A DNA stretch of 64,000 nt from Mustelus asterias (taxonomy: Eukaryota). The translations under genes and the position numbers were made by a program. This document shows positions 2,582-61,802 of the stretch, piece after piece (the stretch's first letter is position 1; every line of letters begins with the position of its first letter). The stretch is from NCBI RefSeq assembly GCF_964213995.1, contig NC_135830.1:1488001-1552000 (forward strand), written 5' to 3'. Below the pieces are notes generated by a model. It worked only from the letters and a program-made list of their open reading frames with translations. It was not told the DNA's origin and ran no database searches.

Positions 2582-2969
2582 TTATATTTACTCTATCAAT
2601 GCCATTAATGGTTCTAATATGTATGTGAAAAAGGTTCTCTCGGAGCTGGAGACTGAAGTGCAGACTGAGGATTGAAAGACAGTCCGTGAAACTGGGGGAT
2701 GGAAAGAAAAAATAGGACAAGGTGACGATTGCCAAATGCTGTGGAATAGATAAAGTAAGTAACACATTGAAATCGATGAAGACTGTAAGGCGCAACGCTA
2801 TCATTCCCCGGCTTTTCCCCAGGGCGAGTTCAGTGACTGATTCTCACACACACAGCCAGTTATGTCCGGGAATAGAAGGTCATAACAAATCACATGTGCG
2901 TCATTTCTAAATGTCACCGCAGTATTATCTGTGCGACTCAGTGCTGATTCTATGGCCAGATAGAGGCCG

Positions 2970-3260
2970 ACTTGGCAGATGTTTCGACCAGGTTGTGGCC
3001 CCTGGATTTATTTTCTGCTCAGAAGTGAGACGTGCGGTTTGGAGGCAGCTGCAAAGAAACAGGAAGTTGTGTTACCTGAAAATGAAACAGCAGGCGTTAG
3101 TTACATGTTATCGCCATGAGCAGTCTTCCTGCCTGAGAGGGTGAACTCACTGTCAGTATCAGGAATCGACACACAGATTGTTTCTAGATTATTCATTGCA
3201 ATCACATCAATTATTATATTAAAGAAAATACGTTTGATTTCCTTCTGGTTTTAAATCATT
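2970..3260. promoter_or_regulatory. Candidate lymphoid enhancer block (copy A)
   Basis: E-box CAGATG 2976, RUNX TGCGGTT 3033, ETS ACAGGAAGT 3059, IRF-like GAAAATGAAA 3078, ETS CTTCCTG 3125 and ATTGCAAT 3195. All are retained in the diverged paralog at 52640-52915. Confidence 0.45.
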
Positions 3261-3934
3261 TCTTCAAGTTGAAAATGCAGAGACGCTTAGCACTGACAGA
3301 AATAAGGGGAATTTAAAGCAAATAGAACTCTCATTATTGATTTATGGAAAATATATATTATTAAGTCAGCCATGTGCTGGCATAGAAAGGGACGAACGTG
3401 GAACAAAAATGATAAGTGATCTGTGGCTGTGAGAGAGGAGTTAAATGTGTTAATTTGTGCCTGAGAGAGTTTAAGTGGCTTAACATCGTTATGTTTTTGT
3501 GACGGGAGTTAAATCGCGTTGTCTCTCGGAGGGGCAAAGCGAGTAAAGTGCTGTCTTGACGAAAGGAGAGAAGATACATGGGTCGGCTGCTGTAGGGAAT
3601 GGGGGCGAGAGGGGGGTCGACGCAAGGCATAGAGATTGAGAGAGAGAGGGTTAAAGAATACAGGTAGAAATAGGTGAAGTGAGTTCGTTGAAATCTCAGA
3701 AAAAGGATTAGTTGAGACCTGTCATAAACTTACTTGCATTGATAACGGACTGGTCAGTGTTGCATCACTTTCTGTGGTTATGGACAAATATCAAAAGTGA
3801 AAAGTGTATAATTGGAATGTAATATCATTGCCTGCCCAAAATTTAAACATTTCCAATGTTACAATATTTGTCAATAAACTTAAATTAAATGCCAAAACAT
3901 TTTGTGGAAAACTGTAAGCATTAAGAATTATATT

Positions 3935-3935
<1 letters not shown>

Positions 3936-3975
<40 letters not shown>

Positions 3976-4047
3976 CACATTCACATTCGTGCACACACAC
4001 ATACACACACACAAGCAAACACGCACGCACTGACATACACACATGCA
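3936..4047. repeat. (CA)n microsatellite / CA-rich tract
   Basis: Direct inspection; paralogous tract at ~53608-53730. Confidence 0.9.
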
Positions 4048-4146
4048 TCCATCTGACGAAGGAGCAGCGCTCTGAAAGCTAATGGCATTTGCTACCAGAT
4101 AAACCTGTTGGACTTTAACCTGGTGTTGTTAAAACTCTTACTGTGT
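4048..4146 (+). mobile_element. Short Penelope-like (pLTR-derived) insertion
   Basis: Same family as 5158-5404. 13-bp TSD ATACACACATGCA (4035-4047 / 4147-4159). Absent from duplication copy B. Confidence 0.75.
4049..4085 (+). ncRNA. Minimal type-I hammerhead ribozyme motif
   Basis: CCAT-CTGACGA-A-GGAGC-agc-GCTCT-GAAA-GC-TA-ATGG: stem I CCAT/ATGG, conserved core, stem II with one G.U pair, palindromic AGCT in place of stem III. Confidence 0.65.
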
Positions 4147-5250
4147 ATACACACATGCACACAGAGAAAATCACAAAACCTATACATATAAATACAGCAC
4201 ACTGTGTCAGTTGACTTCAATGGCACGTATTAAATAGATTAATGTTTTTTTATTCTGATCGTCATAAGGAAACAGTAGAGTCCATTCCACTGAGAAGGTG
4301 GCTGACATCTTTGTCTGGAACAAATATGGGCCAAGTCAAATATAATTTTTTAAAAATCCACGAAAACAAATCAGCAGATTAATCAGAGCATTGTGAACAA
4401 TTAACACAGTACATGATTAGAATTGAAACAACATTGGGCTTGTATTTCAATATTAAATGCGATAGGTTTGATACTGGCAATGCCAGTCACATTGTCCAGC
4501 ACAGTAATATTTGGGCAGAATATCATGCAACAATTAGATTTTAAATGCTTTTCGTATAGAAAAATGTCTGAGTCTGGGCTCGTGCAATGACTAAAGGTGC
4601 AAAGTTTGGTTAATATATACTCTAGCAAGGTCCAGGGCAATGACTGATGAGTCAATGTCTTAATTAATATAAACTGGGACAGGACTTAGTGCTGTATATT
4701 TACTGATATATAGGGACTAGATAAATACAGACCAATACAGGGTCGAGTGCAGTGATTACTGACACAGGGGCTATATTAATTTAACATGACAAAGTATCTT
4801 GTGCAATATATACTGGTACAGTCTCAAGACTAATAAATAATCTGATACAAGAATAGCGCAGCATTTACTGATACAGGCCTGAGATTAGTATAAAGGGAGA
4901 CAGTGTCTACCCCAGTATTTACTGATGCAGCACCAAGAAAAATAAATCTTCTAAAGGGTTTGTTATCTTTATTTACTGATACCGGGTCGAGGATAATACA
5001 GATTGATCCAAAATATATTGCAGAAATTTATTGGTACAGGAAGTAGATTTATATAGATTGATGCAGAATATAGTGCTGTGCTTACTTATAGAAGACATAA
5101 ATTAATATAAATTGATGCAGAATATAGTACAATACGAATTCTATGTTAATATAGATTGATGTGGAGATGCCGGCGTTGGACTGGGGTAAGCACAGTAAGA
5201 AGTCTCACAACACCAGGTTAAAGTCCAACAGGGTTATTTGGTAGCAAATA

Positions 5251-5289
5251 CCATAAGCTTTCGGAGCGTGCTGCTCCTTCATCAGATAA
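5251..5289 (-). ncRNA. Minimal type-I hammerhead ribozyme motif (left arm)
   Basis: Reverse complement: TTAT-CTGATGA-A-GGAGC-agcac-GCTCC-GAAA-GC-TT-ATGG. Confidence 0.6.
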
Positions 5290-5309
5290 GTGGTTATCAG
5301 ATAACCACT

Positions 5310-5348
5310 CCATCTGACGAAGGAGCAGCACGCTCCGAAAGCTTATGG
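5310..5348 (+). ncRNA. Minimal type-I hammerhead ribozyme motif (right arm)
   Basis: CCAT-CTGACGA-A-GGAGC-agcac-GCTCC-GAAA-GC-TT-ATGG; perfect stems I and II. Confidence 0.7.
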
Positions 5349-7259
5349 TATTTGCTACCAAATAAACCTGTTGGACTTTAACCTGGTGTTGTGAGACTTC
5401 TTACCATATAGATTGATGCAGAATGCAGCACAGTATTTACTGAAACAAGAACTAGATTAATGTAGATAAGTACAAAATATAATGCAGTATTTCCTGATAC
5501 AGGAACTTGCTTAATATCGATTGATACAGAATACATTGCATTATTTAATGATATGGATTCATATACATACAGATTGATACAGAATATTGTGTAGTGTTAA
5601 CTGATACAGGGGAATATTGATATAAACTGAGACAGGGTCTAGTGAAGTGATTACAAGATCTAGTCCAGTGATTATTGATACAGGGTCTAGATGAATATAA
5701 ACTGAAACAGGGTTTAGTGCAATATTTACTGTTACGGGGACTTTTTTAATATCACCTGACACGGAGCCCAGTGCAGTGATTACTGATATAGTTTTTAGAT
5801 TAATACTGATACAAGATAGAGTGTAGTTTTCACTGATGTACAGGCCCAAGATTAATATAAATTGGTACAGGGTCTAGTGCAATATTTACTGATACAGAGT
5901 GTAGATTAATATGTACCGATACATTACAATGCAATGTGTACTGATACAGGCCCTAGATTAATATAAACTGATACAGAGTGCAGTACTTACTGATGCAGAG
6001 TTTAGATTAATATACATTGGCATATTATAATGCAGTGATTACTGATACAGGCCCTAGATTAATTTAAACCGGGGTTGGGTCTAGTGCAGTGATTACTGGT
6101 ACAGGCCCTAGATTAATATAAACTGAGGGTGGGCCTAGGGCAGTGATTAAAGAGACAATGTTTAGTACAGTATTTAATGTTACATGGATTAGATTAATAT
6201 GAACTGGTATAGAGTCTAGTTAAATGATGCAGGGTTTAGATAAAAAGATAAGTAAAAATGATGCAGGGTCTCGTGCAGTGAATACTGAAAGGTTATAGAT
6301 TGATATAAACAGAAGCTGCAACTAATGCAATGAGTAATGACACAGAGTGTAGATGAATATACAGGGTCCAGTGTGGCATTTACTGGTGAAGGGTCTATTA
6401 GTAGAAATTGATACAGGGTAAAGTGCAGTATTTAACAATGCCGATCCTAAATTAATATAAAACGAGACAGTGCATAGTGATATAATGACTGAAGGGCACT
6501 GAGGAATACAAACTGACACACGGATGAGTGTAATGTTTAATGTTTCAGGGCCTAGATTAGTGTTAGCCTGTGACAGGATAAACTGCAATGATTAATTATA
6601 CATGGTATAAATTTCTATAAACTGAGACAGGGACTAGTGAAGTAATAGTTGATACACGACATAGATTAATAAAAACTCAGGGAAGATATAGTGCAGTTAT
6701 TACTGATGCAATGTCTAGACTAATATAAACTGATACAGGATATAGTGCAGTGATTATTGATACAGGGTCTAGATTTATATAAACTGAATAGATTTATATA
6801 AACTGCAGCGATCAATAATGCAGGGGCCGTGTTCATATAAGCTAATACAGTTTAACGTGCAGAACTATTGGTAAGGGTACAGGTTAATGTAAAATGAGAC
6901 AGAGTCTACTGCTGTGATTACTGATGGAGCATCTAGATTTATATCAGCTGAGAGAGGGTCCAGTGTACTGATTACTGATACAGGTGATGAGTAATATAAC
7001 TGAGACATTGTTTGGAGCAGTGATTACTGATTCAGGGTTTACATTTATAAGTTGATGCAGGGTCCGGAGCTCTAATTCTTGGTGGAGGACAATGATAAAT
7101 ATAAAATATTACAGATTCTAGTGCAATGAATATTGGTACCAGGACTGGATGTTTTAGTCCAGTCTTATCTGGTACTGGGCCGAGGTTGATACAAAAACAC
7201 TGTTCCTGGTGGATGGAATTACAGTTTGAGAACCTTGCTGAAAAGAAACAATGATGAAG

Positions 7260-7812
7260 CGACCAGAACTGTGCTCAGACCCCACTTGGAGTACTGTGCT
7301 CAGGTCTGGTCACCTCACTACAGGAAGGATGTGGAAAAGATTGAAAGGGTGCAGAGGAGATTTACAAGGATGTTGCCTGGATTGAGTGGCATGCCTTATG
7401 AGGATAGGCTGAGGGAGCTCGGTCTTTTCTCCTTGGAGAGACGAAGGATGAGAGGAGACCTAATAGAGGTGTATGAGATGTTGAGAGGCATAGATCGGGT
7501 GGACTCTCAGAGGCTTTTTCCCAGGGTGGAAATGTCTGCTACAAGAGGACACAGGTTTAAGGTGCTGGGGGGTAGGTACAGGGGAGATGTTAGGGGTAAG
7601 TTTTTCACACAGAGCGTGGTGGGCGCGTGGAATCGGCTGCCGTCAGTGGTGGTGGAGGCAAACTCAATAGGGTCTTTTAAGAGACTCCTGGATGAGTACA
7701 TGGAGCTTAATAGGATGGAGGGTTATAGGTAGGTCTAGAAGGTAGGGATGTGTTCGGCACAACTTGTGGGCCGAAGGGCCTGTTTGTGATGTAGTTTTTC
7801 TATGTTTCTATG
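7260..7812 (+). mobile_element. 5'-truncated CR1 LINE, same young subfamily as 1-2581, with a short 5' inversion
   Basis: ORF 7226-7732 (RPHLEYCAQVWSPHYRKD...) is nearly identical to the end of 1943-2503. Flanked by ATGAAG repeats (7254-7259 / 7810-7815). Confidence 0.95.
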
Positions 7813-10399
7813 AAGACAAGTACAGTGACTACTGGTACAAGGCTGAGATGAAAATACATTGAGGCCAGGTCAAGTGCTACGATGACTGAGTTCCCTGGAT
7901 GAAAATTAACTGAATACCCTGGAGCAGTCATTTCTGATGTATAACCTAGACTAATAGCAATTAAAAGACGCATTACCACAGAAATGGCAGATTTTCACAG
8001 AGGCCCAAAACTGGGCCTCTGTGAAACCCCAGTGTAGACCATCAGCAGCATTAGAATTGCATCAAACCACTCTAACCGAAATATCGGGCCAATGATAAGT
8101 CAAAGAGGGCACGCCAACAGCAACAACAGGCATGCCTAAAAATCTAAAGTCAACCTGGAAAGCCGACGGCACAAAACCACACGCAAAAGGCTTCAGTCAG
8201 AGCTAAGCCAAATGACAAATCAGGTCTGAGATGCAAGACCCTCTATCATGTTTCGTGAAAGGTGGTGGATAACTAAACAACGAATTATAAGATGAGGCTT
8301 CACGATGCCATTAACCACCCTGGGGGAGCAAAGCACATCATTGCAAAAGAGAAAGATGATTCTTTTGGAGCCTAACCAATAACATGCTCACTATTGCTCA
8401 GTTTTGGTTCCATCATGGCAGTTCCTGACTTATTTGCAATCTTGGCCCAGCAGGGATGCACGTGGACAAGTCAAGGGTGATGTGACAGTGAGCACTCATT
8501 GACATCAAGGCAACAATTTAAATTTTGTCATCTACAGGTTCCAGTCAACTGAAGTAATTTCAAATGGGAGAGGGAGCATCCCCTGTGTAGAGCCATAATA
8601 GACACAAACATAGATGTGGAAACTGAAGGTCAATGGTTTCAGTCCCAGGACATCACTACAAGGTTACCTCACAATAGCTTTCAAGGGCCAAAGATCATAG
8701 ATAGAGTCCGCAGAACGTCATCCATCACAGGTTCCATCAAGTTGGAACGGAAGTAACTTGTCCACCGTCTTGACGAACTTTCAAAGAAGAAACATATGGT
8801 CTGTAGATTAGTATAGTCCGAGGAAGGGTACAGTTCAGCGATAATGATAGAGGGCCTCGATTAATGTGAACTGAGGCAAGGTCTAGTGCAGCAATTACTT
8901 ATACAAGGCATCGACTGATATAAACAGAGACAGATTCGTAGCCAGTGACTACAGATGGAGGGTCTAGATTAATATAAATAGAGAGGACCAAGGGCAGTCT
9001 TTACTGATAACGTGTCCAAATTCATACCTACAGATATAGTAGCTATAGTAGTGATTAGATTCAGGGTCTGGAGTACTATCAACAGAGACAGGTTCCTGCG
9101 AATTGATGACTGATAATGTGTCTGGATTAATATGAAAATTGACAGGCTGCAGAGAATTGACTGCTAGTATAGAGTGAAGTTAATGTAAAAAGACAGGAAC
9201 TAGTGCAGTGTGTAATAATACAAACTGATAATAGGTCCAGATTAATATAAAAGGAGACAGGACGTGGTGCAGTGATTACTCATCCAGGGCCTAGATTAAT
9301 ATAAGCTGAGAGAAGATCTCACTCAGTGTATAGTGTTAAACGGCCTGGAGTAATAGCAGCAGTGCTTGTTGCTACTGTAGGTATTACTGACAACCAGCAT
9401 GGATTAATATAAATGGCGATAAGATTTATGACAGGAATTCCTGGTACAGAGAGCAGATTACTTAAATGGAGACAAGGCCTGAAGCTGTGAATGTTAACAC
9501 AACACCGAGAGAAAATTCAAATATACATTTGACGAGGAAGTTTTAAATGGATGACATTCTAAGATATTGAAGAGCCGACAAGTTGTGCAGTGAAAATTAA
9601 AGCATAAACTAGTACAATGAAATCGAGATAGGGTTTGGTGTCTTATCTCAAAACCCATCTGAGAATGCTGTTGTAATCAAAGGGTTGGTTTGTTTATTAA
9701 TATCGAATAAATATATTTTCTGGGCTCGTGATATTCCTGCCAGTGCAAAATTTTTATCTCCAATTAATCAAACACAATACCTCATACCACAGACCATTTC
9801 CGTTAACATTCTCCTCGGATTGTTGCTGGTGATGACTGCAATCCCAGTTTCCTGTTGTGCTGATGCTGCATCTCATGCCGTATAAAACTTAAGTTCCAGG
9901 CGTCTATCTACCTTGCCTGCTTCCAGGTATTTTTCATTTGCAATCTCTGATCCCTATAAGTGAACTAATCAAAAATATAGTGCAATTTTACAAAAGTGTC
10001 AGATTAATAACTGAAGTTGACAAGAGAACGCACCGCTTAAAATTAAACTGATCCATGTGGACTAGACAGTGCTCCGGAATTTTAGGGACATGGAACCAAA
10101 TGACTTAATTCCAAGCCACCAACCCTTAGATGTCGAATGTATTTTCTGAGTGACAGTCATAAATGGGCAGGAACCCATTCCTTAGGTTTTGCAGCAAGGT
10201 ATTGCTGCCAGAATTCAGATCTGACAATGGTAATGTCATCGCAACTTTAGGAAAATGAAGCATGGAAGTAAGTTAATTGGGTTTACTAATCCAGAGGCCA
10301 TTAACAACTTCCACGTATACAGTATATATAATATGGGAATATGAACTCCATTAACCAATAAAGCAGAATAGAACTATTATTGCATTAATAACCTAAACA

Positions 10400-10720
10400 C
10401 TGAATTGCCATAAAAGCTCACCGGTTTTCCTTATGCCATTCGGGGGAGGAATTTTGCGTAACTTCCAAACTACCACCTGGAGGTTCCCTCCAAGACACTC
10501 CTCTTCCTGACTTGGAAATATATCGCCGGAGCTTCACTGTCACTGGGTCAAAATACTGGAATTCCCTCCCTAACTGTGCTATGGGTGTACCAACACATAA
10601 GGGACAGAAGAGTTTCAAGAAGGTAACTCACCACCACGTCCAAAAGGGCAAATAGAGATGGTTAATAAATGCGAGCCGAGCCAGCGTCACTCATATCCCA
10701 TGAGATGATTTTAAAAAAAC
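10400..10720 (+). mobile_element. Old retroposon 3' end (LINE/SINE tail), shared with copy B (~63360-63660)
   Basis: GACTTGGAAATATATCGCC...TTCACTGTCACTGGGTCAAAATACTGGAATTCCCTCCCTAAC...TTCAAGAAGG...AATAAATG, a common elasmobranch repeat tail. Confidence 0.6.
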
Positions 10721-11979
10721 ATAATGAATACACAGAATTTGGGTTGACTCGTTGATGCCCTTAGAATGACCTAGGATATGATTCAGCTGTATCAACAGTG
10801 CGCCGGTAATAATGTGCATAACACACAGACTGCGGTGGTTCAAGATGTCAGCTTCTCATCACTTTCCCAAGGGTAATTGGAGATTGGACAATGAACTCCG
10901 GCCTTACTCGCCAAGCTCGTAACCAAACAATCAGTAATTCCATAATACAAAATTGTTCAAAATACCGCGGATGCTGTAAATTGAAACCTGACACAGAAAA
11001 TTCTGGAAACACTGAGCATTTCAGGTCGCATCAGTGCAGAAGGAAACAACATTTATTTTTCAGGTGGACTAGATGATATATTATCTCGAGTGTCACTATT
11101 TCAAATAGTAGTGGAGTTATCTCCTGTAACCTGGATAAATATTTACTCTGCAGCTAACATTACCAATGAAAAGATGAAACGATAATTTTTCGCATCTCTG
11201 TCGGAGGGAGCTATCTGTGCATTAATCGCATGTCGTTGGTGATTATTATTCAAACAAGATATTTCAATGCATGGAAATATCTTCAGATAGTCTTGAGATG
11301 GTGAACGGCCTTTAACAAATACTCGTTTTTCGGCTAAATGTGAACATTTCATAATCCAGATCATGATGTATTCAAATGTCTAAAATTAACCTGATTATAG
11401 GTCACTCCTGTAATACTATATTATAGGGTCATTTTAAAATGCTTAGTTTAAAGGGATTGATATTCAATGGGAAAACAAGCTGTCTGGGGAAACATAATTG
11501 ATATAGGTCAAAAAACTTGCAGAACTGAATTCTTAAATGTAATGGGGTGTTCTATTCAAAATCAATAACATCTTTACCAAATAAGTTTTGAATATTTGTC
11601 CTCAGAAAAGTTTTTACGCACTGTGAAGATTCTTAGAATAAACTCTTTCTGTGAGTTGAAAACAGTCATTCCGTGACATCGTTGATCTTGTTTTGCTGTC
11701 ATGAATACTTCATAGAAACCAGTGAGCTGTTTACATAAATAAACACAGAATCGGATATCTGACAATAGAACATTGAGAGACAGAAGCATAATAGATATTT
11801 CTCCAACACCAAAAAAGCAGAAATAACCAGAGACAGGAGCTGAGACATGACGTAACATCAAATGACAAAACAGATTCCAGCAATGATTGATATTTGGAAC
11901 AACTCTAACAGTTATGAGAGAATTATGTAAAGATTATGTCTGTGTTCGAAATTGGTAAACTGTGCTTTTCACTGTACAG

Positions 11980-17102: not shown

Positions 17103-17398
17103 ATGTGCAATCCGTTGTTGTGCTGACCCAGTCGGCTTCTGTGATGAAAAAGCCCGGAGAATCTCACAAAATCTCCTGTTCAGTAGGTGGCTTCAGTCTG
17201 GACGCTCACCATGTGCACCATGGTTTAAACAATTTCTTGTAAAAGGGCTGGAGTGGCTCCTTGTTTATAGAAATCCGTCGGATAGCAAGTATTATGCGCC
17301 TGGTGTCGAAGGTCAAATGATCCCATCAAGAACCTCGTCCATCACCTATATTGAGATAAAAAATCTGACACCGGAAGGCACGGCCATGTATTACTGGT
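17103..17398 (+). pseudogene. IGHV: Ig heavy-chain V segment pseudogene (divergent VH)
   Basis: DVQS-VVVLTQSASVMKKPGESHKISCSVGGFSLDAHHVH[+2 nt, 17219-20]WFKQFLVKGLEWLLVYRNPSDSKYYAPGVEGQMIPSRTSSITYIEIKNLTPEGTAMYYW. First Cys, FR2 Trp, GLEW and TAMYY motifs present; terminal CAR lost. Confidence 0.93.
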
Positions 17399-17436
17399 CA
17401 CGATGCTATGCATAGCGGAATCCTCAGACACAAACT
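17399..17436 (+). other. V recombination signal sequence (22-bp spacer)
   Basis: Heptamer CACGATG, 22 nt, nonamer ACACAAACT. Confidence 0.85.
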
Positions 17437-17750
17437 GCAAAGAGGGGATTTGCTCAAATCTGCAAACATTACAATAGCAAGAATCTCAAATAAATTTAAC
17501 CTTAACTGAAAAAAGGGAAATACTAATCTGTCCTTGCATAGATGCATAACATTCTTCGTTAATCTTCATTTTCATTGTCATGTTAAGGATGGTACAGATG
17601 GCTGTTAAACATTTCGATAAGATTGGTGTGTGTGTTTATATATATGTAAATGAACTTAAATATCACAGTGATTCAGTCTTCGATGAAACAGAATAAGTAA
17701 AGTGCCCTGTGGAATTTATTCCCCGTTCTTTGCAGTTGACATTCTGCCGC

Positions 17751-17819
17751 AGTATTTGACATGGTGTGTCTCACAGTGATGCAGCTGGGGGCACAACCAT
17801 TACTGCCATTGCAAAAACC
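17751..17819 (+). other. IGHD: IgH D segment (17779-17791, ATGCAGCTGGGGG) with 12/12 RSS
   Basis: AGTATTTGA-12-CACAGTG | D | CACAACC-12-GCAAAAACC; both spacers are exactly 12 nt. Confidence 0.85.
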
Positions 17820-18145
17820 GCCTCAGGACTAATTGATTGAATTTGTGTCAATACATGTTTTTTTAACAATGCAACTTCATTTGTATGAAGTCCTATTTGT
17901 GTCCGGATCTGCTAAAGTGTTATGTTTAAGATATTGATTCTTAATGCAATGTAATGATTCTTAAATTATCAGTTGCTGTTTCAATACATGATGTTGGGCT
18001 ACTCTGCAAAATATAAAGTATTGGCTTAATGAATAAATATATTTAACATATTTATTATTTTAATAAGATCCATTATGACTTTTCTTTGCCTCTCTATTTC
18101 GAACATTTAAATTAACTATGAATTTCTCCCGTTATGTGCAGAACC

Positions 18146-18232
18146 AGTTATTGCATGCCTCAGATCGGCGAATGTAAAGCTGTGACTATGTTGGCTACTG
18201 GGGACAAGGTACCATGGTGTCAGTGGCTGCTG
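18146..18232 (+). other. IGHJ: IgH J segment (18185-18232) with 23-bp RSS
   Basis: AGTTATTGC-23-AGCTGTG | YVGYWGQGTMVSVAA G|GTAAGT. Confidence 0.95.
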
Positions 18233-18335
18233 GTAAGTAACATTCCTTCCTTGTGTGCTGCTGGATTTGTAAGAATGTTGCATATTCCTATTTCTTTCAT
18301 AATTTATGCAATCTCTTGACTTGGTGGATTCAGTG

Positions 18336-18831
18336 TGTTGGAGTGAAGTCAAAGTTAAAGGACACAAAATGGTTACCTGGCACAAAATGGCCTCTGGGAA
18401 AAGACATTAAGAGGCACTGACTTTGGGCACAGACATTGCACAGAGTTAAAACCTGTAGTGTTTAAATTACTGAAGGAAATAGATCAGACCTTGAGGCACC
18501 TTAGCTTGAGATAAAAGCAGGACCCAAAACAATGAGTTTTGATAACGAGATCAGTCATTGATGGGGGACATAAATGCATAAATGTATCTACTCTATGTGT
18601 AACGATGTGCTAACTGTTAATGTCCGTACTTGTCTACTCAATGTATAATGATGTGCTAATGGCTAATGTCTGTACTGTCCATTATGTAAAATGTATAAAA
18701 GATGCTCAACTACCATTGTATAGTTGAGAAGGTGACTCCCTGTACTACGGAGTGCCAGCGCTTCTCCCAAAGCTTTGTCCGAATAAAACTGCTTGTTGAA
18801 GCTCTAAGTCTGACTCCGAAGTCCCACAACA
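18336..18831 (+). mobile_element. Solo LTR (ERV-like), 496 bp
   Basis: Termini TGTTG...CAACA, 4-bp TSD AGTG (18332-35 / 18832-35), TATAAAA 18694, AATAAA 18782, short internal U3 duplication. Confidence 0.88.
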
Positions 18832-19929
18832 AGTGTTTGCAATGATTCAATTGATTATGTTGCAAAGAGAATAGACACTGAAAATTTAGGGGTTTGTTTA
18901 GGATCTGTTTGAATGACTTGTTATTTTTATCTCTGCTGATCAGACTTTGCGCCTGGTATACTTTAGGTACGGAGTTTTGTTAAACAGTTTGGCGTTTCTA
19001 CCATATTTAACAATTGTGACATCTGATTGTTTTAAGGTTTATTACCAAAATACGTGATTCATAATAATTGAAATGAAATTGGAGGCAGATTAAGCAATGC
19101 TTCCAAAATCATTTTAAAAAACTCCGTGTTTTAAAATGAATTTGAGTTATTTTAGTTGTGCTCAAAGCATTTCAATATATTGACAAACATCTCTGATCAA
19201 TAAATTAAATGCTGTGATAAATAAGATGAACACAAGTACTAGTTTCTGCCTGCATATAATTTACATTATTGCAATTTGATATACGATAATATGGCCGAAC
19301 ATTACTAAATAAACCAAGAAAATTAGCACCAATATATTAAACATGGACTGTTTGAGTAAAATTAATTTGCCTTCATTGCATGTTTCTTTTTACTTTAATA
19401 AATTATTTGTTCAGTGACAAATGGCTTTAGTGCAATGTGTTGAGATTAATGTTACATTTGCTTTTCTTGAAGGACTTAGAGGATTTAGCAGCTGTTATAC
19501 TCAGTCTCTTGGTGTTGTAAAGTGCCGTTATTTGCTGAGGAGAGTATATACTAAGTTCACTTAGGATAACTAAAGTTTGTGAGATTGGTGATTCTCTGTC
19601 TTTTTTTAGTGGAGATCATATCGAGAGAATGTTTGCTGTGTTTTTAAACTTCTTTGTAGGAGGATTGTAGTGGGAAAAGATCACATTTTATGAATTAAAA
19701 AATATATTTATGACTATCATTTTATTTAAGTGACAATTGCAGATTAAACTACTCGTATATTGTTTATCATACTCCTACTTAATGCATGTAATATCGTAGC
19801 ACTAATTGCATAATATGAAAGACGATGGAGGGTGAAAATAATATAAATCGAAAATTATATTGCGGCAACATTTCAGAAGGTTACCAGAACATGAAACATT
19901 ATCAGCATATGTTTGTAAGATGTTACGAA

Positions 19930-20145
19930 TAAATATAGAAAATGCTGCATAAAATCAACGGGTCTGGTAGCATCTGCAGAGAGAGAAACTGAGTTAACTT
20001 TGAGTCAAAGTGACTCTTCTACAGATAATGGACTTGAAATGTTGCCTCTATTTCTCTCACCACAGATGCTGTCAGACCTGCCGAGTTTAACCAGCATTTT
20101 TTTTGGATTTATTTCAGACTTCAGGCATCCGTCATATTTTGTTGT
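19930..20145. mobile_element. Old degraded Penelope-like hairpin element
   Basis: Imperfect inverted arms (AAAATGCTG...GGGTCTGGTAGCATCTG / CAGATGCTGTCAGACCTG...CAGCATTTT), related to 23393-23790. Confidence 0.6.
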
Positions 20146-21103
20146 AATTGATTAAACAATGCTTTGCTTCCACAATTCTGTTTGACACGCAGCACGATTA
20201 ACCTAAACCAGGAAAATGCAGAGGCTCAAGAGAGTATCCAATTGTGTTTCTTGTTTTTAATACATTTTAGTTAGTATCATTGCAGTGTTAATCTTAAAAA
20301 AGGACTTTTAGATTAATGTCTTTCTCTCTGCCTTGCACAGATGGTGCGAATTAATTTTCTGTTGAATGCGTGCTAGATCTTACAGTTGGCTAATTTAGCA
20401 TAACTGACTGGTTGCTGAATCTTTATTGAGCTGCAGAACTTGTCATTGTCCCTTCGCTTGTTGTTTAGACTACATGCATTATTCAAATCTTAAACAATTT
20501 GCAAGAGGAAGATGCGCCTTTGGCTGTTATTGAATTGCTCATTAATTCTAGTTGAATTCAAAGAAATTACGTCTTGCTTAAGACTGGATGTGGACAAACA
20601 TTGTAATTGAAGCAACTTAACTATATTCAAAATGTAAGTTTTGAATTGAAGTTCGGCAGTCAATCTCGTAAAGTTGTGTTCTATGTGAGATGTTGATAAT
20701 GACACTGGGCAGCTTAAAACTGAGGGCTATATTTCACCCTTATTAAAATTGCTGCTATTTTTGCTCATTGGGTTTTAGTGTCCCAGATCATGTAGATGTA
20801 TCGATATGCCTCAGGTTGACAGTGATTATTATATATGTCTATTTCAATAAACAACATTATTATGTTCACATTTATTTGCGTGCTGTGTATGGACCACATG
20901 AGTAGTATTTAAAACGTTGCTTCAATTACTTTCTACCAGGGGACGTAATAACGGTCAGAAACTGCCAGGGCTAAGTTCAAAAAAATTTTTTAAATTGCTA
21001 TTAAAATTTGCAATAACATTTAAACTCGAAACTCCAGTTATTGTATCCGGAGGATCTGATCTCAATAATGAGCAATGTTATTGTGTCCTCCGGAGGACAT
21101 AAT

Positions 21104-21454
21104 GCGGCACGGTAGCACAGTGGTTAGCACTGCTGCTTCACAGCTCCAGGGACCTGGGTTCGATTCCTGGCTTGGGTCGCTGTCTGTGTGGAGTTTGCAC
21201 ATTCTCCTCGTGTCTGCGTGGGTTTCCTCCGGGTGCTCTGGTTTCCTTCCACAGTCCAAAGATGTGCGGGTTAGGTTAATTGTCCGTGCTAAAGTTGGCC
21301 CTTAGTGTCCTGAGATGCGTAGGTTAGAGGGATTAGCAGGTAAATGTGTAGGGATAAGGGGGTAGGGCCTGGGTGGGATTGTGGTCGGTGCAGACTCAAT
21401 GGGCCAGATGGCCTCTTTCTGCACTGTAGGGTTTCTATGATTTCTTTCTATGAT
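21104..21454 (+). mobile_element. HE1-type SINE inserted into a palindrome
   Basis: Full-length HE1 consensus; flanks form an inverted repeat (see findings). Confidence 0.93.
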
Positions 21455-23392
21455 AACATTGCTCATTATTGAGATCAGAACTCGGCCAGTGATTGAACTA
21501 TTTTAAAATTTTTGTAAATCCATCATGCGAAATGCACTTTTTGAACAGATGAGCTTTACGTCATGCCAACCTGGTCAGAAACACAAAGTGTTTACAGATG
21601 TGTAGGTAAACGAAACATAAAATATTTGGCATTATTGATCATGTTACTTCTTTAAACACAATAAAACAGATATGTCCGAACTTGCAGGCGTTATTTATTT
21701 TATTTACAGAACGGTTACATTAACTTAATAAAGATTAAATGAGTTACAAGGCGCAAAACAGAAGTGTATACAGTTATACAATGATTTGGATTAATCGGTA
21801 ACACATCACAACATTAGAAAATAGGATCCGAGATCAGTGCGAATTCATATAATATAAAGTAACCCTTTCAAATACGCTGGGTTATGTTCAGGGTTAAAAC
21901 TAAAACTCATGATTGAAGAAAATATTTTAGCAATTTGGAGTTAATGTAGAAAACAATGTATTTCTTACTCAATCTGTGCAAATCTGTCAGATAATTATTA
22001 ATCTGCATCATCTGACACATTGAAGCTCAGAGTGCAGATAGGCCGGTGATTTTGCTAAGAATTCAATGTCGCTCTCAGTTATTAGCTGCCCAATGCTTAA
22101 TTCTATCCTACAGAGATCACAACTTTGGAAGTTGTAATGCTGCTCTTAAGTTCAAAGTAACATTTATAATTAAGCGAATCTGCTTCAAACTGCAACATCT
22201 GTTCATCTTCTGTCTAACTGTCGTGATGAGGGATGTTCTGTTTCTGTGAGCGTCGTCACTGCCTGAGAATCAGGAATCCTGGTGACGGACAATGAACATA
22301 CTGGTTCACGCTCCTTTAATTCAAGGTTATTGTTCGTATTTTTTTGTTTTGTTTTCAGTGTTTGATATACGTGGGCCGGACTATCTTCATTGTCCCGTCT
22401 TAAAGATTTAACTTGCAATGCAGACTGGGGTAGAGTTTCAGAATACATTGCACAATTAACCTTACATAGCTTCACAGGACTGTGTGAAGAGAGATTTAGA
22501 AGAACTATTCGATTGTGTATTTGACCTGACAGCGATTCCACTGGCAGTGGTTAACGATATACAATCTCTATTAAGGTAATAGGGTTTGAGAGTTCTGAGG
22601 TAGATACATGAAAAGGACAAAACGTAGATTGTTCAGGTTAAGTAGCTGGCTGTTTATTTAATTTGCATTTCCATTCAAAAAAATAACAAGTTGATGCTGA
22701 TGATCGTTAAAAAATCGACATCAAGTAAATATTGAATCAGTTTGATCTGAGCCACTGCTCACTAACACGCCAACCAAAAGGAGTGACGGTCCTGCTATAT
22801 GATCAAGACTGGAAATTATTATCTTATATTTAAATATGCTGCTTTGCTGTACAGTTAATACAAACTGCGCTTGAATATTTGATGGCGAAATACAAAATGC
22901 AGCTAATATCAATTGCGAACTCAGTTCTTAACTGTCCAAAAACTATTTGATTAACGAGAGGTAGATTAAATTATTTGGTATTTACGAATGCAAACATGTA
23001 AATGGAACCGCAAATGTTAACTTTGCCTGTGCAAAATCAGAACATTCATTGAACTGTGAGTATTTGATGGAGCAATTTACACGAACCGCTTCTGTCCGTC
23101 CGCCCATTGCTTGTCTGTCTCTCTCCCCCCACACCCGTCCGTCCATCTGCCGGTCTGTCCGTCCGTCTGTCTGTCTGTTTAATGATCTATTTGTATACCT
23201 AGCTATCTATCTATCTGTCCGACTGTCTGTTGTCCATCGTTCTGTCTGACGCATTTTTCTATCTGTCTGTCTGTTTGTCTGTCTGGATGTCCATTTATTT
23301 AATTCCGAGTGAAGGACCCTAGTTGGTGGGTTTTTTTTCTTATCATTTTGCTCTAAACAGGAGATGAGTGTATCAATATCAAAACTTTGGAG

Positions 23393-23790
23393 AAAAGCAA
23401 ACTACTGCACATGCTGGAATCTGAAACCAAAAGAGAAAACGCTGGGAAGTCTCAGCAGGTCTGTAAGGAGAAAAAAGAGCTGACATTTCGAGTCCAGATG
23501 ACCCTTTGTCAAAGCTAAAAGGCACAGAAAGTGAGAGGTATTTATACTGCAGTATATTCATACTGCTTTAGTCTCTCTGTTGGACAGCTATTAGCAGTCT
23601 TTTCCCCTTGTTATTGTGGCTATGACTCATCTTTCATTCCCTCACCCTGCAGTATAAATATCTCCCACTTTCTATGCCTTTTAGCTTTGACAAAGGGACA
23701 TCTGGACTCGAAACGTCAGCTCTTTTCTCTCCCTACAGATGCTGCCAGGCCTGCTGAGATTTTCCAGGGTTTCCTCTTTTGGTTTCAGAA
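23393..23790. mobile_element. Penelope-like inverted-repeat element with variant hammerhead cores
   Basis: Arms ~23420-23552 / 23647-23789. AGCT-TTGACAA-A-GGG(T/A)C-atctg-GACTC-GAAA-(C/T)G-TC-AGCT at 23683-23721 (+) and 23478-23516 (-). Confidence 0.75.
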
Positions 23791-24027
23791 ATTTGGAAGA
23801 TACTATGTAAATTTAAATGGCCCATTTGCAATTCGATAGCCAGTTGTCCAATTTTGGGATTCCTATCTGATTAGCATTATCTATTTCAGTGAGAGAGAAA
23901 GGGTTTGAGATATGTTACATATCAAAGTTATTGGAATTTAATGATATCTTTCATCAAATTGAGACATTTTGGATTATTTCATAACACGACTAAATCCTAA
24001 CTTGTTGATTTGACTATTACTTCCCAG

Positions 24028-24314
24028 CAGCACCATCTACGTTCTGCTCTCCTTCTGTGAACAGACAGACCCTGCCGGCTCTGTGACCCACGGCTGTTTA
24101 GCGATGGATTACCTCCCCGAAATCAGCAGTGTTTCTTGGAAGAAAGATCAATAGATAACCATTACTGGATTGAAGACTTAGCCATCAGTGCTGAACAAGA
24201 AGGGAACCCACACTCTGGACAGTCCGTTAACCATCAGTGAATCAGAGGTGGGAAGCAGCACCATCTACTGCGAGGTTCGACAAGTAGGGATGTTCTGGAA
24301 GAAGGAAATGCCAG
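24028..24314 (+). pseudogene. IGHM: IgM constant exon Cmu1 (pseudogene)
   Basis: TTCCCAG| ...[89 protein letters not shown] |GTTAGT. Matches shark IgM CH1 (GCLAMDY..., [23 protein letters not shown]). Stops at 24152 and 24179, plus a frameshifting 5' deletion. Confidence 0.95.
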
Positions 24315-24399
24315 GTTAGTTTTCTGGAAATTACAGGGAGGTAGTGCCGGGGTGGGTGTACGGACAATGTGGTCAGCAATAAGCCATATTCAAATTCTG

Positions 24400-24980
24400 G
24401 ATTTATTGAATTAGAATGGAGTGAGAGCATTGTGTAGAGTTCATGTTCTCATATTGTATTTACTGCCTTGTGGCTACCTCTATTATAGACTGCTTACTTA
24501 CTGTACTGTGTGCAGTTCTTGTCTCCACATCACATGTGTTGCAATGTTTATGGATCCTATCTCCATATCACGTTGAGTATATTGTGGGTCCTCCTATTAT
24601 ACACATCACACGCGATTTAAGATGTATAGTTTGAGCTTCACACTCCACTTAGGTTACTATATTCAGTTCTGGTCTTTTCTTTAGAATCAGTGCCATGTGT
24701 ATAGCATCTCTGGTCTTAATTTCACACTTAGTATGACGGTTGCAAGTTCTGGTCTTCATATCACTTAGTGAACTGTATCCCGTTCCGGTCTGCACATCAA
24801 ACTTAATGCGCTGTATGAAATTTTGGTCTGCACGTCACAACATCGTGTGTTGTCGAGAACTCTGGTCTCCACATCAAATTAAGTGTGCTGTGCATTACAT
24901 CACATTTAGTTTAAGGTGAACATTTTTTAAATCCTCATCACACCTACAATACTATATGTAATTGTGATTCCAAGTCAGAG
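24400..24980 (+). repeat. Degenerate ~38-bp minisatellite in the Cmu1-Cmu2 intron
   Basis: Unit ~TTCTGGTCTCCACATCACACTTAGTGTGCTGTGTGCAG; phased copies at 24783, 24821 and 24860. Confidence 0.7.
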
Positions 24981-25390
24981 TAATTCTCGTAGGAGTAAAT
25001 TTAATTACCTGGGCAATGAAAAAGCTGATAGATGATCACAGCCAAGGCACTGAATAGGCTGGTGCTGCTTTCAATGCAAATAAAAGTCTGAGATGCGACT
25101 GAATAAAAGTCTTCAGACTTGTGAACCAGTTAGATAGATTCGACGAAATCTACCATTTAGGCATTTACTAAAATAAATAATAAATATGCAATCCTCAATT
25201 AATGTCTTGATCGATCATGCTCAAGGAATATGTGTTGCTCCATAAGGGAAAATAAAAATGAGATTGTTTTGATAAACTTCAGCATTGAACAATGTGGTCA
25301 ATTGGACTGTATTTTAAGCAAATAGTTTCACAGTTTTGAATTGTTTGGCTTGTAACAAAATCAATTTTTCAAATGTATATTTTCTTGAAG

Positions 25391-25702
25391 ACCGTGTGGT
25401 CCATCATCCAACTGTTCTTCTCACACTGAGTCCCAGTGAAGAAATCTCAAGCAGCAGATTTGCAACTATCATCTGTTCAATCGTTGATTCCTGTCCGAAA
25501 TCAATCAACGTGAAGTGGCTGAGGAATGGCCAAGCCTTTAACTCGGGCATCGGCACATCTCCAGCCTTCGAAGTGAATGGGAACTTTTTGGCCACCAGTC
25601 GACTGACCGTCCCTGTTGGAGAATGGTTCAGTAACACAGTCTATACCTACCAGGCCACTCACAAAGACGCAACTCAAAGTCAAAACATCACCAGACCCAT
25701 GG
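25391..25702 (+). pseudogene. IGHM: IgM constant exon Cmu2 (open frame but defective)
   Basis: TTCTTGAAG|[48 protein letters not shown]...[44 protein letters not shown]. Matches shark IgM CH2. Second Cys is Tyr; donor reads GCAAGA. Confidence 0.94.
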
Positions 25703-32092: not shown

Positions 32093-33720
32093 TCACTGTT
32101 TAATAAATTTCACAATTCCAGCAAAGGGAAATTCCACCACATTTTTCAGATCTGCTCTGAATTGTGTCTGGGTCACTGCATAAATGCATGTGTTGGTGCA
32201 GCAAATACCAGTTTCTGAACAAAAATTGATAATTAAAACCGAAATTAATTCAAATTGTACAATCGGTCATAAAGGCAATAGATTTGGAACCCTGACCACA
32301 TTTCCCGATATTGCAAACAGTCGGAATTAGATTTTCTTCACTTCTCTATCTCTGCATCACTTGCAGTCTTCTCCGGACTTTGCTCGACACAAGAATATAT
32401 TTAATTGTTAAAATATTGAACAGGAAAATCAGCAAGAAAGGAACAGGTGGGGTTAATATATAATGTAGACTTTCAACAGGTGCCCATGCTGTTGAAGAGA
32501 GGACATCAAAATCTACGTAACAGAAAGAGTGATAATTGAAAAGCATATTTCTATCCTCAAACATAAAGTACCAGAACATGTTCTTTACATTGAACAGCAC
32601 ACTCACTGTTCTGAGAACCACTGCTGTCATTTTCTCGGTGCAGTATTTTATTTTCTGTTTGTGACAAGTAATGGCCATGAATCGATCAAAGGTGAAAGTG
32701 ACAGTGAACCAGACAGAACAGTCAGTGACTACATAAAGTAGGAGGGCAGGGATCTTACATACTTTAATGTGATACATGAACATAAATTAATCGCTGAATG
32801 TAATAGGAATTTGCCTCAATATGATGTTGGTGATAACGACCAGTAGATCTGCCGCTGAAATGGAAATTCGATAATGCGAGACACATTTGGAAAGTTCACA
32901 CATTCCTCAAGACAGGATAAGAATCGTCAATAAGTTCACTGTAAGGTAGCGAGACACTACTAACTCATATTTCAGACTGAGAGCAGGAGCAGCTGTCTGT
33001 CAGGATTCTGGGGAGCAGCTGTAGAAATTGTTACAGAATCCAGCCTCAGAATAATATGGATTCACCTGTTCTGCTGACACTGGGTTCACAGTAGGAAAGC
33101 ACTGCACTGATGCAGCAAGGAATCAAATTTACCAACAGATCTGATCTCCAATTTCCTGTCTTTACCTTATTTGGGTTTAGACCAAAGGTTCCTCGTCCTG
33201 GTCACTCTGCTGTGACTGTGTGCAGAGTATGCATTTGTAGGTATTGCATAAGGTGATTTGGAATTAGGTGTGAATCACAAAACTGGAAATTATATATTTT
33301 GCACTGAGGTAGGACCCTGTAGTTACCAAGGTGGGAATAGTGAATGCGGGGGAGGTGGGGAGGGAGTGGGGGGAGCGAGGAGAGGGGTGCTGGGAATGTG
33401 GATGGGGAGTGGAGGGAGCGGGGGGAGGAGAGGGAAATAGAGAGCAACCACCAGGCAGGATTAGGGAGAATGGCTGCTGGGAGGAGAGGGAAACCTTCCC
33501 ATTGCATTAATACATAGGAACATGAAGTTTGCACATAATAATATTGTTAACTGGGTAACATTGACAAGGGCAACAAAAACAGTAAAATATGATTCACCAG
33601 TCACACCAACTGCAGCGAAGAGCGGGTAGTAAATCCTTTGGATATCGTGAAGTACCCAAACAATACAAATCTCAAGTGGAATAATCCAAAATATGGTTTA
33701 CCGACTCTGAGATTCAATGA
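32093..33720 (-). pseudogene. Two-exon rhodopsin-class GPCR pseudogene of the chondrichthyan-expanded GPR139/GPR142-like family
   Basis: Exon 1 (~33720-33598): ...WVLHDIQRIYYPLFAAVGVT G|GTGAAT. Exon 2 (32938-32093): CCTTACAG|VNLLTILILS*GMCELSKCVSHY...AADLLVV...TDCSVWFTVTFTFDRFMAI...KYCTEK...CCTNTCIYAVTQTQFRADLKNVVEFPF...*. In-frame stops at 32907-09 and 32787-89; deletions and frameshifts around TM6. Confidence 0.9.
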
Positions 33721-37838: not shown

Positions 37839-37911
37839 GACTGGCTAGCTCAGTAGGTGGTGCATGAGACTCTTAATTTCAGGGTCATGGGTTCAGGCCC
37901 TATGTTGGGCA
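37839..37911 (+). tRNA. tRNA-Lys(CTT) pseudogene
   Basis: GACTGGCTAGCTCAGTAGGTGGTGCATGAGACTCTTAATTTCAGGGTCATGGGTTCAGGCCCTATGTTGGGCA aligns end to end with vertebrate tRNA-Lys-CTT (73 nt). Stem mismatches and an altered B box. Confidence 0.85.
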
Positions 37912-52007: not shown

Positions 52008-52639
52008 AGTGGTCGAATGGCCTCCTTCTGTACTTTGAAGATTTTATGATTCTGTTTCTGTGATTTTAAGCCCTGAAGTATCTGTCTAATTTCCCTACGC
52101 AAAACTGGATTTGCTTCGACTAGCCTTTCAGGACGTGAATTCCGACTCATAATAACCCACTGTGCAAAAGGAAAATAGATTTCCTCATCTCACCATCCAG
52201 TTCAATTAATTTGAATTTTCTGCTCCTGTTACTGATTTTTCTTCCAGTTGAATCGGGCTTTCTTCATTTTCTCCATTAATATCCTTAATGATTTGGAAGA
52301 CGTATGCAAAAAAAAGTACTCTCAGAGCTGAAGACTGACTGACAGACAGGGGATTGAAAGACATATCATAAACGGATGCAAATAGAAAGTAGGAAGAGCT
52401 GGTGAGGGACAAAAACTGTGAAATACATGAAACAAGTAACTCAGAGAAATGTGAAAACTGTAAAGGTGGCAAACTATCATTTCCCGGTTTTAGACAACAG
52501 GGGAAATTCAATGGCTGATCTACAGACATATCCAGTTATGCCCGGGAATGGAAGCTCCAGCAGATCACATTTGGGTCATTTATAAATGTCACCTCAATGT
52601 GTGACTCTGCGCTGTCACTGTGGCCAGATATAGGTCGCT

Positions 52640-52915
52640 TTGACAGATGGTTCCACCAGATTGTGGCCCCTGGATTTATTTTCTGCTCAGAAGTAAAATA
52701 TGCGGTTTGGTGGAACTGCAGTGAAACAGGAAGTTGTGCTACCCGAAAATGAAACAGCAGGCGTGAGTTGCGTGTTATCGCCGTGAACAGTCTTCCTGCC
52801 TGAACTCACACGGTCAATATCAGGAACCGACACACAGATTGTTTTTAGATTATACATTGCAATCACATCAATTATTGTACTGAAGAACAAGTTTGACTTC
52901 CTTCTGGTTTTAAAT
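52640..52915. promoter_or_regulatory. Candidate lymphoid enhancer block (copy B)
   Basis: CAGATG 52644, TGCGGTT 52701, ACAGGAAGT 52726, GAAAATGAAA 52745, CTTCCTG 52792, ATTGCAAT 52856. Confidence 0.45.
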
Positions 52916-55512
52916 CATACATTAACGTTGAAAATATAGAGATGCTTCACATTTCAAGAACCAATAAGAAATTAAATAAAATGAAACTCTCATGATTGAT
53001 CACTGGAAATTTTTTTTTTTAAGTCAGCCACGTGCTGGCTGAGAAAGCGACGAACGTGGATAAAATTGTTAAGTGATCTCTGACTGTGAGAGAGGGTTGA
53101 AAGAGTTAAGTTGTGCCTGAGAGAAGTTAAGTGACTTAGATGGTATCAGAATGTGTTTGTGACGGAGGTTAAATAAATCAGCTTGCGTCTCGGAGTGCCA
53201 AAGTGAGTAAGGTGTTGTCTTGAAGAGAGCAGAGAGGATTCGTGGGTCAGCTGCTGAAGGGGGTGGGCGGCGGGGGCTGATGAACTGAGGGATGGAGATT
53301 CATAGAGAGAGAGGGAAAGAATACAGACAGAAACATGCAAAGTGAGTTTGGTGAAATCTCAGAGAAAGGGTGAATTAAGTTCTGTCGTGAACCTGCTTCC
53401 AGTGACCATGGATTGTTCAGTGTTACATCGCTTTCTGAACAAAAAAATGTGGTATGGATAAATATCAAAGGTAGAAAGTGCATAATTGGAATGCAATACC
53501 ATCACCTGCCCAAAATTCAAACATTTGCACTATTATTATGTTTGTTAATGAAAGTAAATTAAATGCTAAAAAAAATCGTGGAGAATTGTATACATTAAGA
53601 ATGATTTGCACACACACACACAAACGCACACATACATACAAACACATTCACATTTACATTCACCCATGCACACACACACAGGCATCACATACACACACAT
53701 GCGCACTCACATGCACATATGTACACAGAGAATCTCACAAAACCTATACATATAGAGACAACATTCTGTGTGAGCTGTTTTCAATAGCACATCTTGAAAA
53801 GTTTAAAGTTTATATTCTGATCGTCATAAGGAAACTATAGGAGTCAATTCTACTAAGAAGATGGCTGATATTTAAATCTGGAACAAGCATGGGCACAACA
53901 AATATAATCCAAAAAATCATGCAGTGAGGGAGAGAAAAAAATCAGCTGACTATTCGTAGCATTGTGAACAATTAACACGGTACATGATTAGAATTGAAAC
54001 AGTATTGGACTTGCATTTCAATATTAAATTTGATAGGTTTGACACCAGCAATGCCGGTCACATATTCCGGCACAGCAAAATGTGGGCAGAATATCGTGCA
54101 ACAATTAAGTTTTCAATGTCTTGCGTGAAGAAATGTGCCTGTGACTGCGCCCGTGGAGTGATTAAAGGTGCAAGGTTTGATTAATATAAATCGAAGCAAG
54201 GTCCAGGGCAATGACTGATGAGTCAAGATGAAAATTAATATAAACTGGGACAAGATCTCCTCGTGCTGTGTTTACTGATGCAGGGTCTAGGTTAATACAG
54301 ACCGATACAGGGTCGAGTGCAGTGATAACTCACACAGAGTCGAGATTAATTTAATATTATTGTGCAATATTTACTGCTACAATGCCAAGACTATTTTAAA
54401 AATCTGATACGAAAACAATATAGTATTTGCTCATAAAGGCCCTAGATTAGTATAAACGTTGATCGTGTCTAGTTCAGGGTTTACTGATACAGGGCCTTGA
54501 TTAATTAAATCCTATAGAAAGCCTGTTGTCTGCATTTACTCATACGAAGTATAGATTAATACAGCTTGATCCGAAATATCGTGCAGCGTTTGTTGAGATA
54601 GGAACTAGATTAATGAAGTTTGATACAGAATATAGTGCATTATTTGCTGATACAGGAACTTGAGTAATATAGATTGATTTAGAATGCAGTGAAGTGCTTA
54701 GTGATACTGGGGAGCTAGATGAAAATAAATTGTTACAGAATATATAGCAGCATGTACTGATAAAGGGTCCAGGTTAAAAAAGATTGATACAGAATTAGTG
54801 CAGCATTTATTTATACAGGATCAAAATAAATAGATTGATACAGAATACAGTGCAGTATTTACATATAGAGGAATAAGATTCATGTAGATTGATGCAGAAT
54901 ACAGTGGAATTTTACTAATCAGCAGTCTTTGTTAATATGACCTGATACAGAATATGATGAAATATTTACTGATAGAGGAATTATATTAATATCGATAGAT
55001 ACAGAATACAGTGGAATATATTTACTGATACGGTGTTCATATTAAGATGGATTGATGCATAATACAGTGAAGAATTGACTAATACAGGAACTAGATTAAT
55101 GTAGATTCGTACAGAACACACTGCAGTATTTACTGACATGGGTGTTAGATTAATATAGATTGATACAGAATATCCTGCAGTATTTACTGTTACAGGAACA
55201 AGATTAATGTAAATTGATACAGAATACAGTGCTGCATTTACTGATAAGTGGTGTATATTAATATAGTTTGATACAGAATATAATGTAATGATAACTGATA
55301 AAGGGGGAGATTAACATAAACCTAGACAGATTCTAGTGAATTGATCACAGAGTTTGGTTTAATATAATCTGAAGCAGGATCTCGTCCAGTGATAACTGAT
55401 CCAGAGCCGAGATTAATATTAATTGATTCAGGATTTAGTGCATTATTTACTGTTGTGCAGTCTTTTCTTATTTTAACCTGGTACAGAGTTCTGTGCAATG
55501 ATTACTGATATA

Positions 55513-60400: not shown

Positions 60401-60517
60401 TAATTAAACAATTAATTACAATATGAGGCTGCACAATTCCATCTATCCATCCCCAGGGGAGCGCATCCCAACATTGCAAAAGAGAAAGATGAATCTTTTG
60501 TAACTGAAGTAATAGCA

Positions 60518-61720: not shown

Positions 61721-61802
61721 TGTGGAGATGCCGGCGTTGGACTGGGGTAAACGCAGTAAGAAGTTTAACAACACCAGGTTAATGTTGGACTTTAACCTGG
61801 TC
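61721..61802. mobile_element. Internally deleted Penelope-like element
   Basis: Family head plus ACCAGGTTAA...TTAACCTGGT; 13-bp TSD TAGACTGATATAA (61708-20 / 61803-15). Confidence 0.8.

Follow-up and report, generated by a model that had tools for sequence, protein, structure and literature searches.

A conserved element upstream of V in the IgM clusters of the shark Mustelus asterias as a candidate lymphoid enhancer

The heavy-chain enhancers E-mu and E-mu-3' occupy the J-C intron or the DNA 3' of Cmu. Only a few of the many independent IgH miniloci of a shark become active in any one B cell, which raises the question of how they are selected. Malecek 2008 (PMC2435157), as far as its text was available to us, makes the case that promoter-enhancer holocomplexes are limiting for each cluster, and treats shark IgH as lacking the octamer; the passages covered contain no mapped enhancer. 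The word "enhancer" was not found in the accessible part of PMC12227049 or, by term search, in that of PMC5192425, and the sections covered of PMC9936319 give no enhancer for cartilaginous fish. In mouse Igh, according to the part of PMC10390877 considered here, the PAIR elements bind Pax5, CTCF and YY1 within one translocon. Our literature searches, with subscription papers and supplements outside their scope, returned no mapped shark IgH enhancer and no description of the element analyzed below, and the layout of the probable enhancer, upstream of V, did not come up in them either.

The window, that is, the whole stretch of 64,000 nucleotides that was analyzed, belongs to Mustelus asterias NC_135830.1 and lies on contig C71 in the naming of our genome search. 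Comparison of the window with itself shows a duplicated block, positions 2586–10925 and 52266–63895, both on the plus strand, which forms the upstream blocks of two IgM clusters, A and B, at about 79% identity; the block of cluster A contains 54-bp tandem arrays. The conserved core of the element occupies 2860–3155 in copy A (family profile 2821–3212) and 52536–52810 in copy B (profile span 52499–52873), on the plus strand in both cases. Copy A is situated 14 kb upstream of the V of cluster A, as the earlier sequence-only reading had it, and copy B is 23 kb upstream of an intact V outside the window (G000:C71:1563838). Degenerate 27/54-bp tandem arrays are found in the upstream blocks at 4600–7000, 8800–9300 and 54200–59700, and the V genes of main IgM and IgW are preceded by similar arrays.

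Both window clusters belong to one old IgM lineage. Cluster A consists of a frameshifted VH pseudogene (17104–17410, plus strand), D-type heptamers at 17664 and 17772, a J-like segment near 18190, Cmu1 with stop codons (24032–24283, plus strand), and Cmu2 (25393–25692, plus strand), whose amino acid identity is 65% to main IgM and 82% to cluster B; Cmu3/4 of this cluster were not found. Cluster B looks intact, with the intact VH just outside the window followed by Cmu1–4, and since cluster A is a pseudogene, copy B is likely the working copy of the element. Cmu2 of cluster B shares 85% identity with a Scyliorhinus torazame protein (P0036) and 65% with the main IgM of the same genome, indicating that the split between the window lineage and main IgM is old. 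The V of cluster B is 56–60% identical to IgW V domains and 44% identical to main IgM V, and in both window clusters (17104–25692; G000:C71:1563838–1582000) an IgW-like VH is germline-joined to Cmu exons. Between the two clusters, an ORF fragment at 32346–32786 (minus strand), which we take to be GPR139-like, resembles a seven-transmembrane receptor pseudogene, and Rfam gave a marginal tRNA-like match at 37839–37911 (31.8 bits), which is probably SINE-derived. In many main-group IgM clusters (G000:C109:1080163, C112:1059345, C110:844668 and others), a broken partial V is found 11–29 kb upstream of the full V.

The sequence-only reading proposed that the stretch 2970–3260 is better conserved than its flanks, and the sliding-window comparison of the two copies agrees with this: identity is 247/280 (88%) in the stretch versus 4633/5879 (79%) in the remainder of the aligned block, and the stretch ranks first among 462 overlapping 290-bp windows of the duplication, with the runners-up at 85.6% and 85.4%. 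Because the probability of a maximum window of at least 0.882 is 0.016 under an iid model, which ignores rate variation, the A/B pair alone gives modest support. The core conserved throughout the family (approximately 2860–3155) lies to the left of the interval originally proposed. The flank 3300–3930 was matched in the genome search only by the two window copies, and a search pattern specific to the window-type element likewise matched A and B only.

The genome contains about 260 candidate copies (255–262, with 40 scored in each search), and a 26-mer that does not vary matches exactly at 143 places. Of these, the 100 exact matches listed are all on C71 or C87–C160, and many contigs bearing them also bear IgH V genes; the matches listed are confined to contigs with Ig or zinc-finger genes and are thus not scattered over the genome. 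A pattern match on C69 was a chance match, with no profile match there. The copies fall into three groups: the two window copies, a main IgM group, in which 36/40 copies precede V on the same strand by 31–59 kb, and a third group adjoining C2H2 zinc-finger (ZNF) genes, in which 0/38 copies do so. For the third group, a ZNF gene stands beside the copy in all 4 contexts read over 40 kb, and one is within 1.5 kb at 9/28 loci. A first view from the top BLAST matches, in which the element was purely a ZNF feature, is ruled out by the V-linked main group.

With a pattern demanding the RUNX site described below (70 copies; limits of 65 kb for V and 80 kb for Cmu2), 59/70 copies were upstream of V or Cmu2 on the same strand, whereas 2000 shuffles gave 10.5 on average and never more than 23. 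In an enlarged set of 98 RUNX-intact copies, composed of the first pattern, a second pattern and one profile match, 75 were upstream, one was on the opposite strand, and just one was downstream of V on the same strand; on these grounds we reject the suggestion that the element is the 3' enhancer of a preceding cluster. Counted by cluster, the co-location with Ig genes expected from the sequence-only reading is clear: 62 of the 77 clusters with both V and Cmu2 have a copy upstream of V on the same strand, at a distance of 3.8–59 kb, although the independent cases amount to about ten lineages rather than 62, since most or many clusters are recent duplicates. The element descends together with the rest of the IgM cluster unit, in a fixed orientation and at distances of 4–59 kb.

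Several of the 15 V+Cmu2 clusters without a copy are near contig ends. A profile search upstream of nine IgM clusters missed by the first patterns recovered the element in six (C87, C108, C160 and three on C71), and all six recovered copies have the RUNX site; the profile search did not find the element within 56–60 kb upstream of three IgM clusters with an open V (C104, C158 and C143). Clusters with an open V frame and no element are at G000:C104:1170130, C110:183482, C110:859834, C773:29933, C158:551905 and C143:781148, three of which were checked by profile. The element was also not found in the 30–49 kb that precede each of three V genes on C185, an IgW contig, in the 40 kb before one V that lacks Cmu2, in 60 kb around an IgNAR-like cluster, or in 90 kb of light-chain-like clusters, so the idea of such an element in every Ig class does not hold for those sampled. 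The IgNAR-like cluster, presumably so classified, as are the light-chain-like ones, is at G000:C71:704001–764000 on the contig of the window, about 750 kb from it. A clade of five RUNX-intact copies (G000:C91:2291811, C115:756497, C127:332094, C127:589720 and C183:514600) has Ig-type flanks and no V, Cmu or ZNF nearby; these are apparently orphaned fragments, and no homology to the Ig upstream block was found over 60 kb downstream of the copy at C127:332k.

Co-duplication by itself predicts co-location, and the approximately 260 candidate copies could also be those of a short transposon or of DNA carried along neutrally by segmental duplications. The degree of conservation speaks against both. 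Between copy A and main IgM, identity is 238/292 (81.5%) in the element, 394/546 (72%) in Cmu DNA and 110/182 (60%) at third codon positions; for copy B, the corresponding values are 229/279 (82%), 932/1182 (79%) and 68.5%. An element more conserved than the Cmu exons implies purifying selection. When the window lineage is compared with a fully read main IgM cluster, matching outside repeats is restricted to the element, the D-J region, the exons and the 3' flank of Cmu4, while the other upstream DNA has become unalignable, repeats excepted; in the other IgM lineages, the core retains about 79–86% identity, with separately aligned flanks mostly at 66–80%. A transposon is further opposed by the absence of the 100 listed exact copies from C1–C70 and C72–C86 and by the element having moved together with its flanks; neither convincing terminal repeats nor a tail nor dispersal across the genome could be made out, and no terminal inverted repeats or target duplications were seen. 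The passenger or transposon reading is thus largely refuted, and we regard it as very improbable.

Conservation extends beyond this genome: when 1.8 kb of a main-group locus was compared with contigs from three other organisms, only the element and a repeat were covered. The underlying sequencing runs, RNA by guess in 22/24 (shares 0.04–0.08), show conservation across species and not transcription; the contigs pass unbroken through the element and reveal neither transcript starts nor strand. A single flank was informative, and it resembles those of the ZNF type. Taken together, these data make it very probable that the element is a selected cis-element of shark IgM clusters. Elsewhere in the locus, a 50-bp stretch of the J-C intron (18975–19024) is 82% identical to G000:C71:5802688–5802737 in the main IgM cluster (E about 1e-5) and is possibly, judging by this match, a second, intronic element.

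The most invariant block of the element, at 3003–3042 (plus strand), consists of a T-rich tract and TGCTCAG and was not among the motifs of the sequence-only reading; 30/40 of its columns are invariant across 20 representatives, and it matches no named factor. It can also be read as a 3' splice site, a polypyrimidine tract followed by CAG, and copy A contains an ORF of 46 codons, so that the element might be a conserved non-coding exon, a splice signal or a short coding exon of a co-duplicated gene. An ORF 46 codons long is, however, present in only 9/82 copies and is broken in most; a six-frame test gave no coding signal, with a synonymous share of 0.32 versus 0.16–0.34 in other frames, and the RNA-guessed contigs pass the putative acceptor unspliced. 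Folding of the single strand or of the alignment gave no signal (z 0.54 and −0.93; 2/72 pairs compensatory), and Rfam, run on the window and nine loci, had no match at the element, neither of which supports a structured RNA. We consider an exon or splice signal improbable.

Motif labels denote matches to consensus strings, not to matrices, and were scored in 15 deep lineages, with variability taken by column among the observed copies. The ordered set of six motifs was found complete in both copies. The E-box CAGATG (2976–2981, copy B 52644) and the RUNX site TGYGGTT (TGCGGTT in the window; 3033–3039, copy B 52701) are exact in 13/15 deep lineages each, the ETS site ACAGGAAGT (3059–3067, copy B 52726) in 11/15, all on the plus strand, and a second ETS site on the minus strand (CTTCCTG on the plus strand; 3125–3131, copy B 52792) is present in 12/15. 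The ISRE-like GAAAATGAAA (3078–3087, copy B 52745, plus strand) is exact among these lineages in A and B only, and over the groups in 2/2 window, 0/30 main-IgM and 1/28 ZNF copies. Likewise, the C/EBP-like ATTGCAAT (3195–3202, copy B 52856, plus strand) is outside the family core and was found in A and B only (2/2, 0/30 and 0/28, respectively). Of the lymphoid motif grammar that was proposed, the E-box, RUNX and ETS sites are kept in 11–13 of the 15 lineages, whereas the IRF/ISRE and C/EBP components are nearly private to the window copies and are not supported.

An ETS-IRF composite-like site is found in the left part of the core. GGAAnnGAAA, which we take to be the ETS-IRF composite consensus, has one mismatch in both A and B at 2869–2878 (plus strand) and matches without mismatch in 30/30 main-IgM copies, in 8/15 of the remaining IgM-linked copies and in 9/28 ZNF copies. 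An exact octamer was found in 0/82 copies, with one mismatch in 9/82; neither MEF2 nor NF-kB consensus matched in the 82 copies, nor did the core consensus of CTCF (0/82). All five motif classes occurred together in 1/219 window tiles, 1/1821 other tiles and 0/1000 shuffles, a density comparison that is circular because the motif set was picked after the sequence had been seen. In conservation, the named motifs do not stand out from the remainder of the element (six motifs, p = 0.22; four motifs, p = 0.11).

In trees of 82 and 30 copies, with a midpoint root only, every deep branch is IgM-linked, and the copies linked to ZNF genes group in a single nested clade (96/93). This nesting indicates an IgM origin and a single capture by the ZNF arrays, and the capture carried some left flank together with the element. 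According to the trees, one copy would have been carried once into neighbouring C2H2 zinc-finger arrays and amplified there, with the RUNX site mostly lost. That site is present in every IgM-linked copy scored, whereas in the main ZNF clades all 26 copies scored have lost it, with 2 more not parsed; one small ZNF sub-clade retains it (3/3). ZNF-linked branches do not exceed Ig-linked ones in length and are in part shorter, so these copies seem to be constrained too, and 66 of the 100 exact copies listed have no V within 65 kb, those inspected sitting in ZNF arrays. The element is thus not Ig-specific, at variance with an exclusive tie to Ig genes, and its ZNF-array copies, to go by the trees, probably serve zinc-finger genes.

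These ZNF copies suggest that the element might be a general regulatory element of the chromosome (a broad enhancer, boundary or chromatin opener) serving IgM and zinc-finger genes alike, with no special lymphoid role. The majority of listed copies away from V, the strong conservation of the ZNF-linked copies, the ZNF-type flank in the RNA-guessed contigs of the other organisms and an invariant block that matches no named lymphoid motif would all fit. The IgM linkage of all deep lineages, with the ZNF copies nested on a tree with a midpoint root only, the loss of the RUNX site in the main ZNF clades and the lack of a match to the CTCF core consensus weigh against it, and we judge a general role unlikely, if worth keeping in view.

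An upstream lymphoid enhancer, one per IgM cluster, is in our opinion the most likely function, at about even odds. A core V promoter is excluded, since the distance to V varies. RUNX, ETS (PU.1/Spi-type) and E proteins would bind the element in developing B cells, with the ETS site of the main group adjoining an IRF half-site; the bound element would contact the octamer-less VH promoter and open the V-D-D-J minilocus to germline transcription and RAG access, and perhaps later to hypermutation. The minilocus might instead be primed by transcription and not by looping, the element being the upstream promoter of a non-coding transcript, as in mouse PAIR, where, in the sections available of PMC10390877, V-associated 470-bp repeats carry a lncRNA promoter. 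A TATA-less make-up of ETS, RUNX and E-box sites, the fixed orientation to V and the presence of the element in RNA-guessed contigs are consistent with such a promoter; but descent alone suffices for the fixed orientation, contigs that cross the element without a joint cannot show starts, and no downstream exon is common to the window lineage and the main IgM group. We hold this to be rather unlikely.

If the element is an enhancer, it is a defined 300-bp candidate for the enhancer of the proposed limiting promoter-enhancer complex. We tentatively extend this to a possibility that we ourselves doubt: the element may be an ancestral activation switch of shark IgM, one per cluster and 5' of V, whose infrequent occupation by limiting RUNX, ETS and E factors would decide which few of about 100 clusters rearrange per B cell and so lead to heavy-chain exclusion, with a single capture having brought this switch to a large array of zinc-finger genes elsewhere on that chromosome. 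Natural controls are at hand in the element-less clusters, the RUNX-less ZNF-linked copies and the copies linked to pseudogenes.

Among known systems, the element shares with Ig enhancers that it is non-coding, conserved and physically linked to Ig. The mouse Igh PAIR elements and V8E enhancers (PMC10390877, in the part seen) are similar in being a conserved repeat of a few hundred base pairs that is co-duplicated with VH on the V side of the locus, has an E-protein site and promotes local V recombination; in layout and make-up, the shark element, also a V-associated conserved repeat, differs from PAIRs in its single copy per autonomous V-D-D-J-C cluster, its distance of 4–59 kb, its RUNX/ETS make-up and its lack of a CTCF-core match. 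With mammalian E-mu and catfish E-mu-3' (PMC1800861 and PMC3972084, as far as covered), it has in common clustered E-box and ETS sites and a compact, non-coding, IgM-tied nature; those enhancers carry octamers, while the shark element is 5' of V, in neither the J-C intron nor a position 3' of Cmu, and has no exact octamer. The Ig lambda enhancers and DIVAC hypermutation activators (the passages used of PMC3972084) resemble it in combining an E-box with a composite site of the PU.1-IRF4 type, exact in all main-IgM copies, and differ from it in the NF-kB and MEF2 consensus sites that the shark copies lack. With an enhancer 5' of V that has no octamer, the regulation of cluster-type IgM would depart from that by the translocon enhancers of bony vertebrates, and also from that of the IgW, IgNAR and light-chain clusters of the shark itself.
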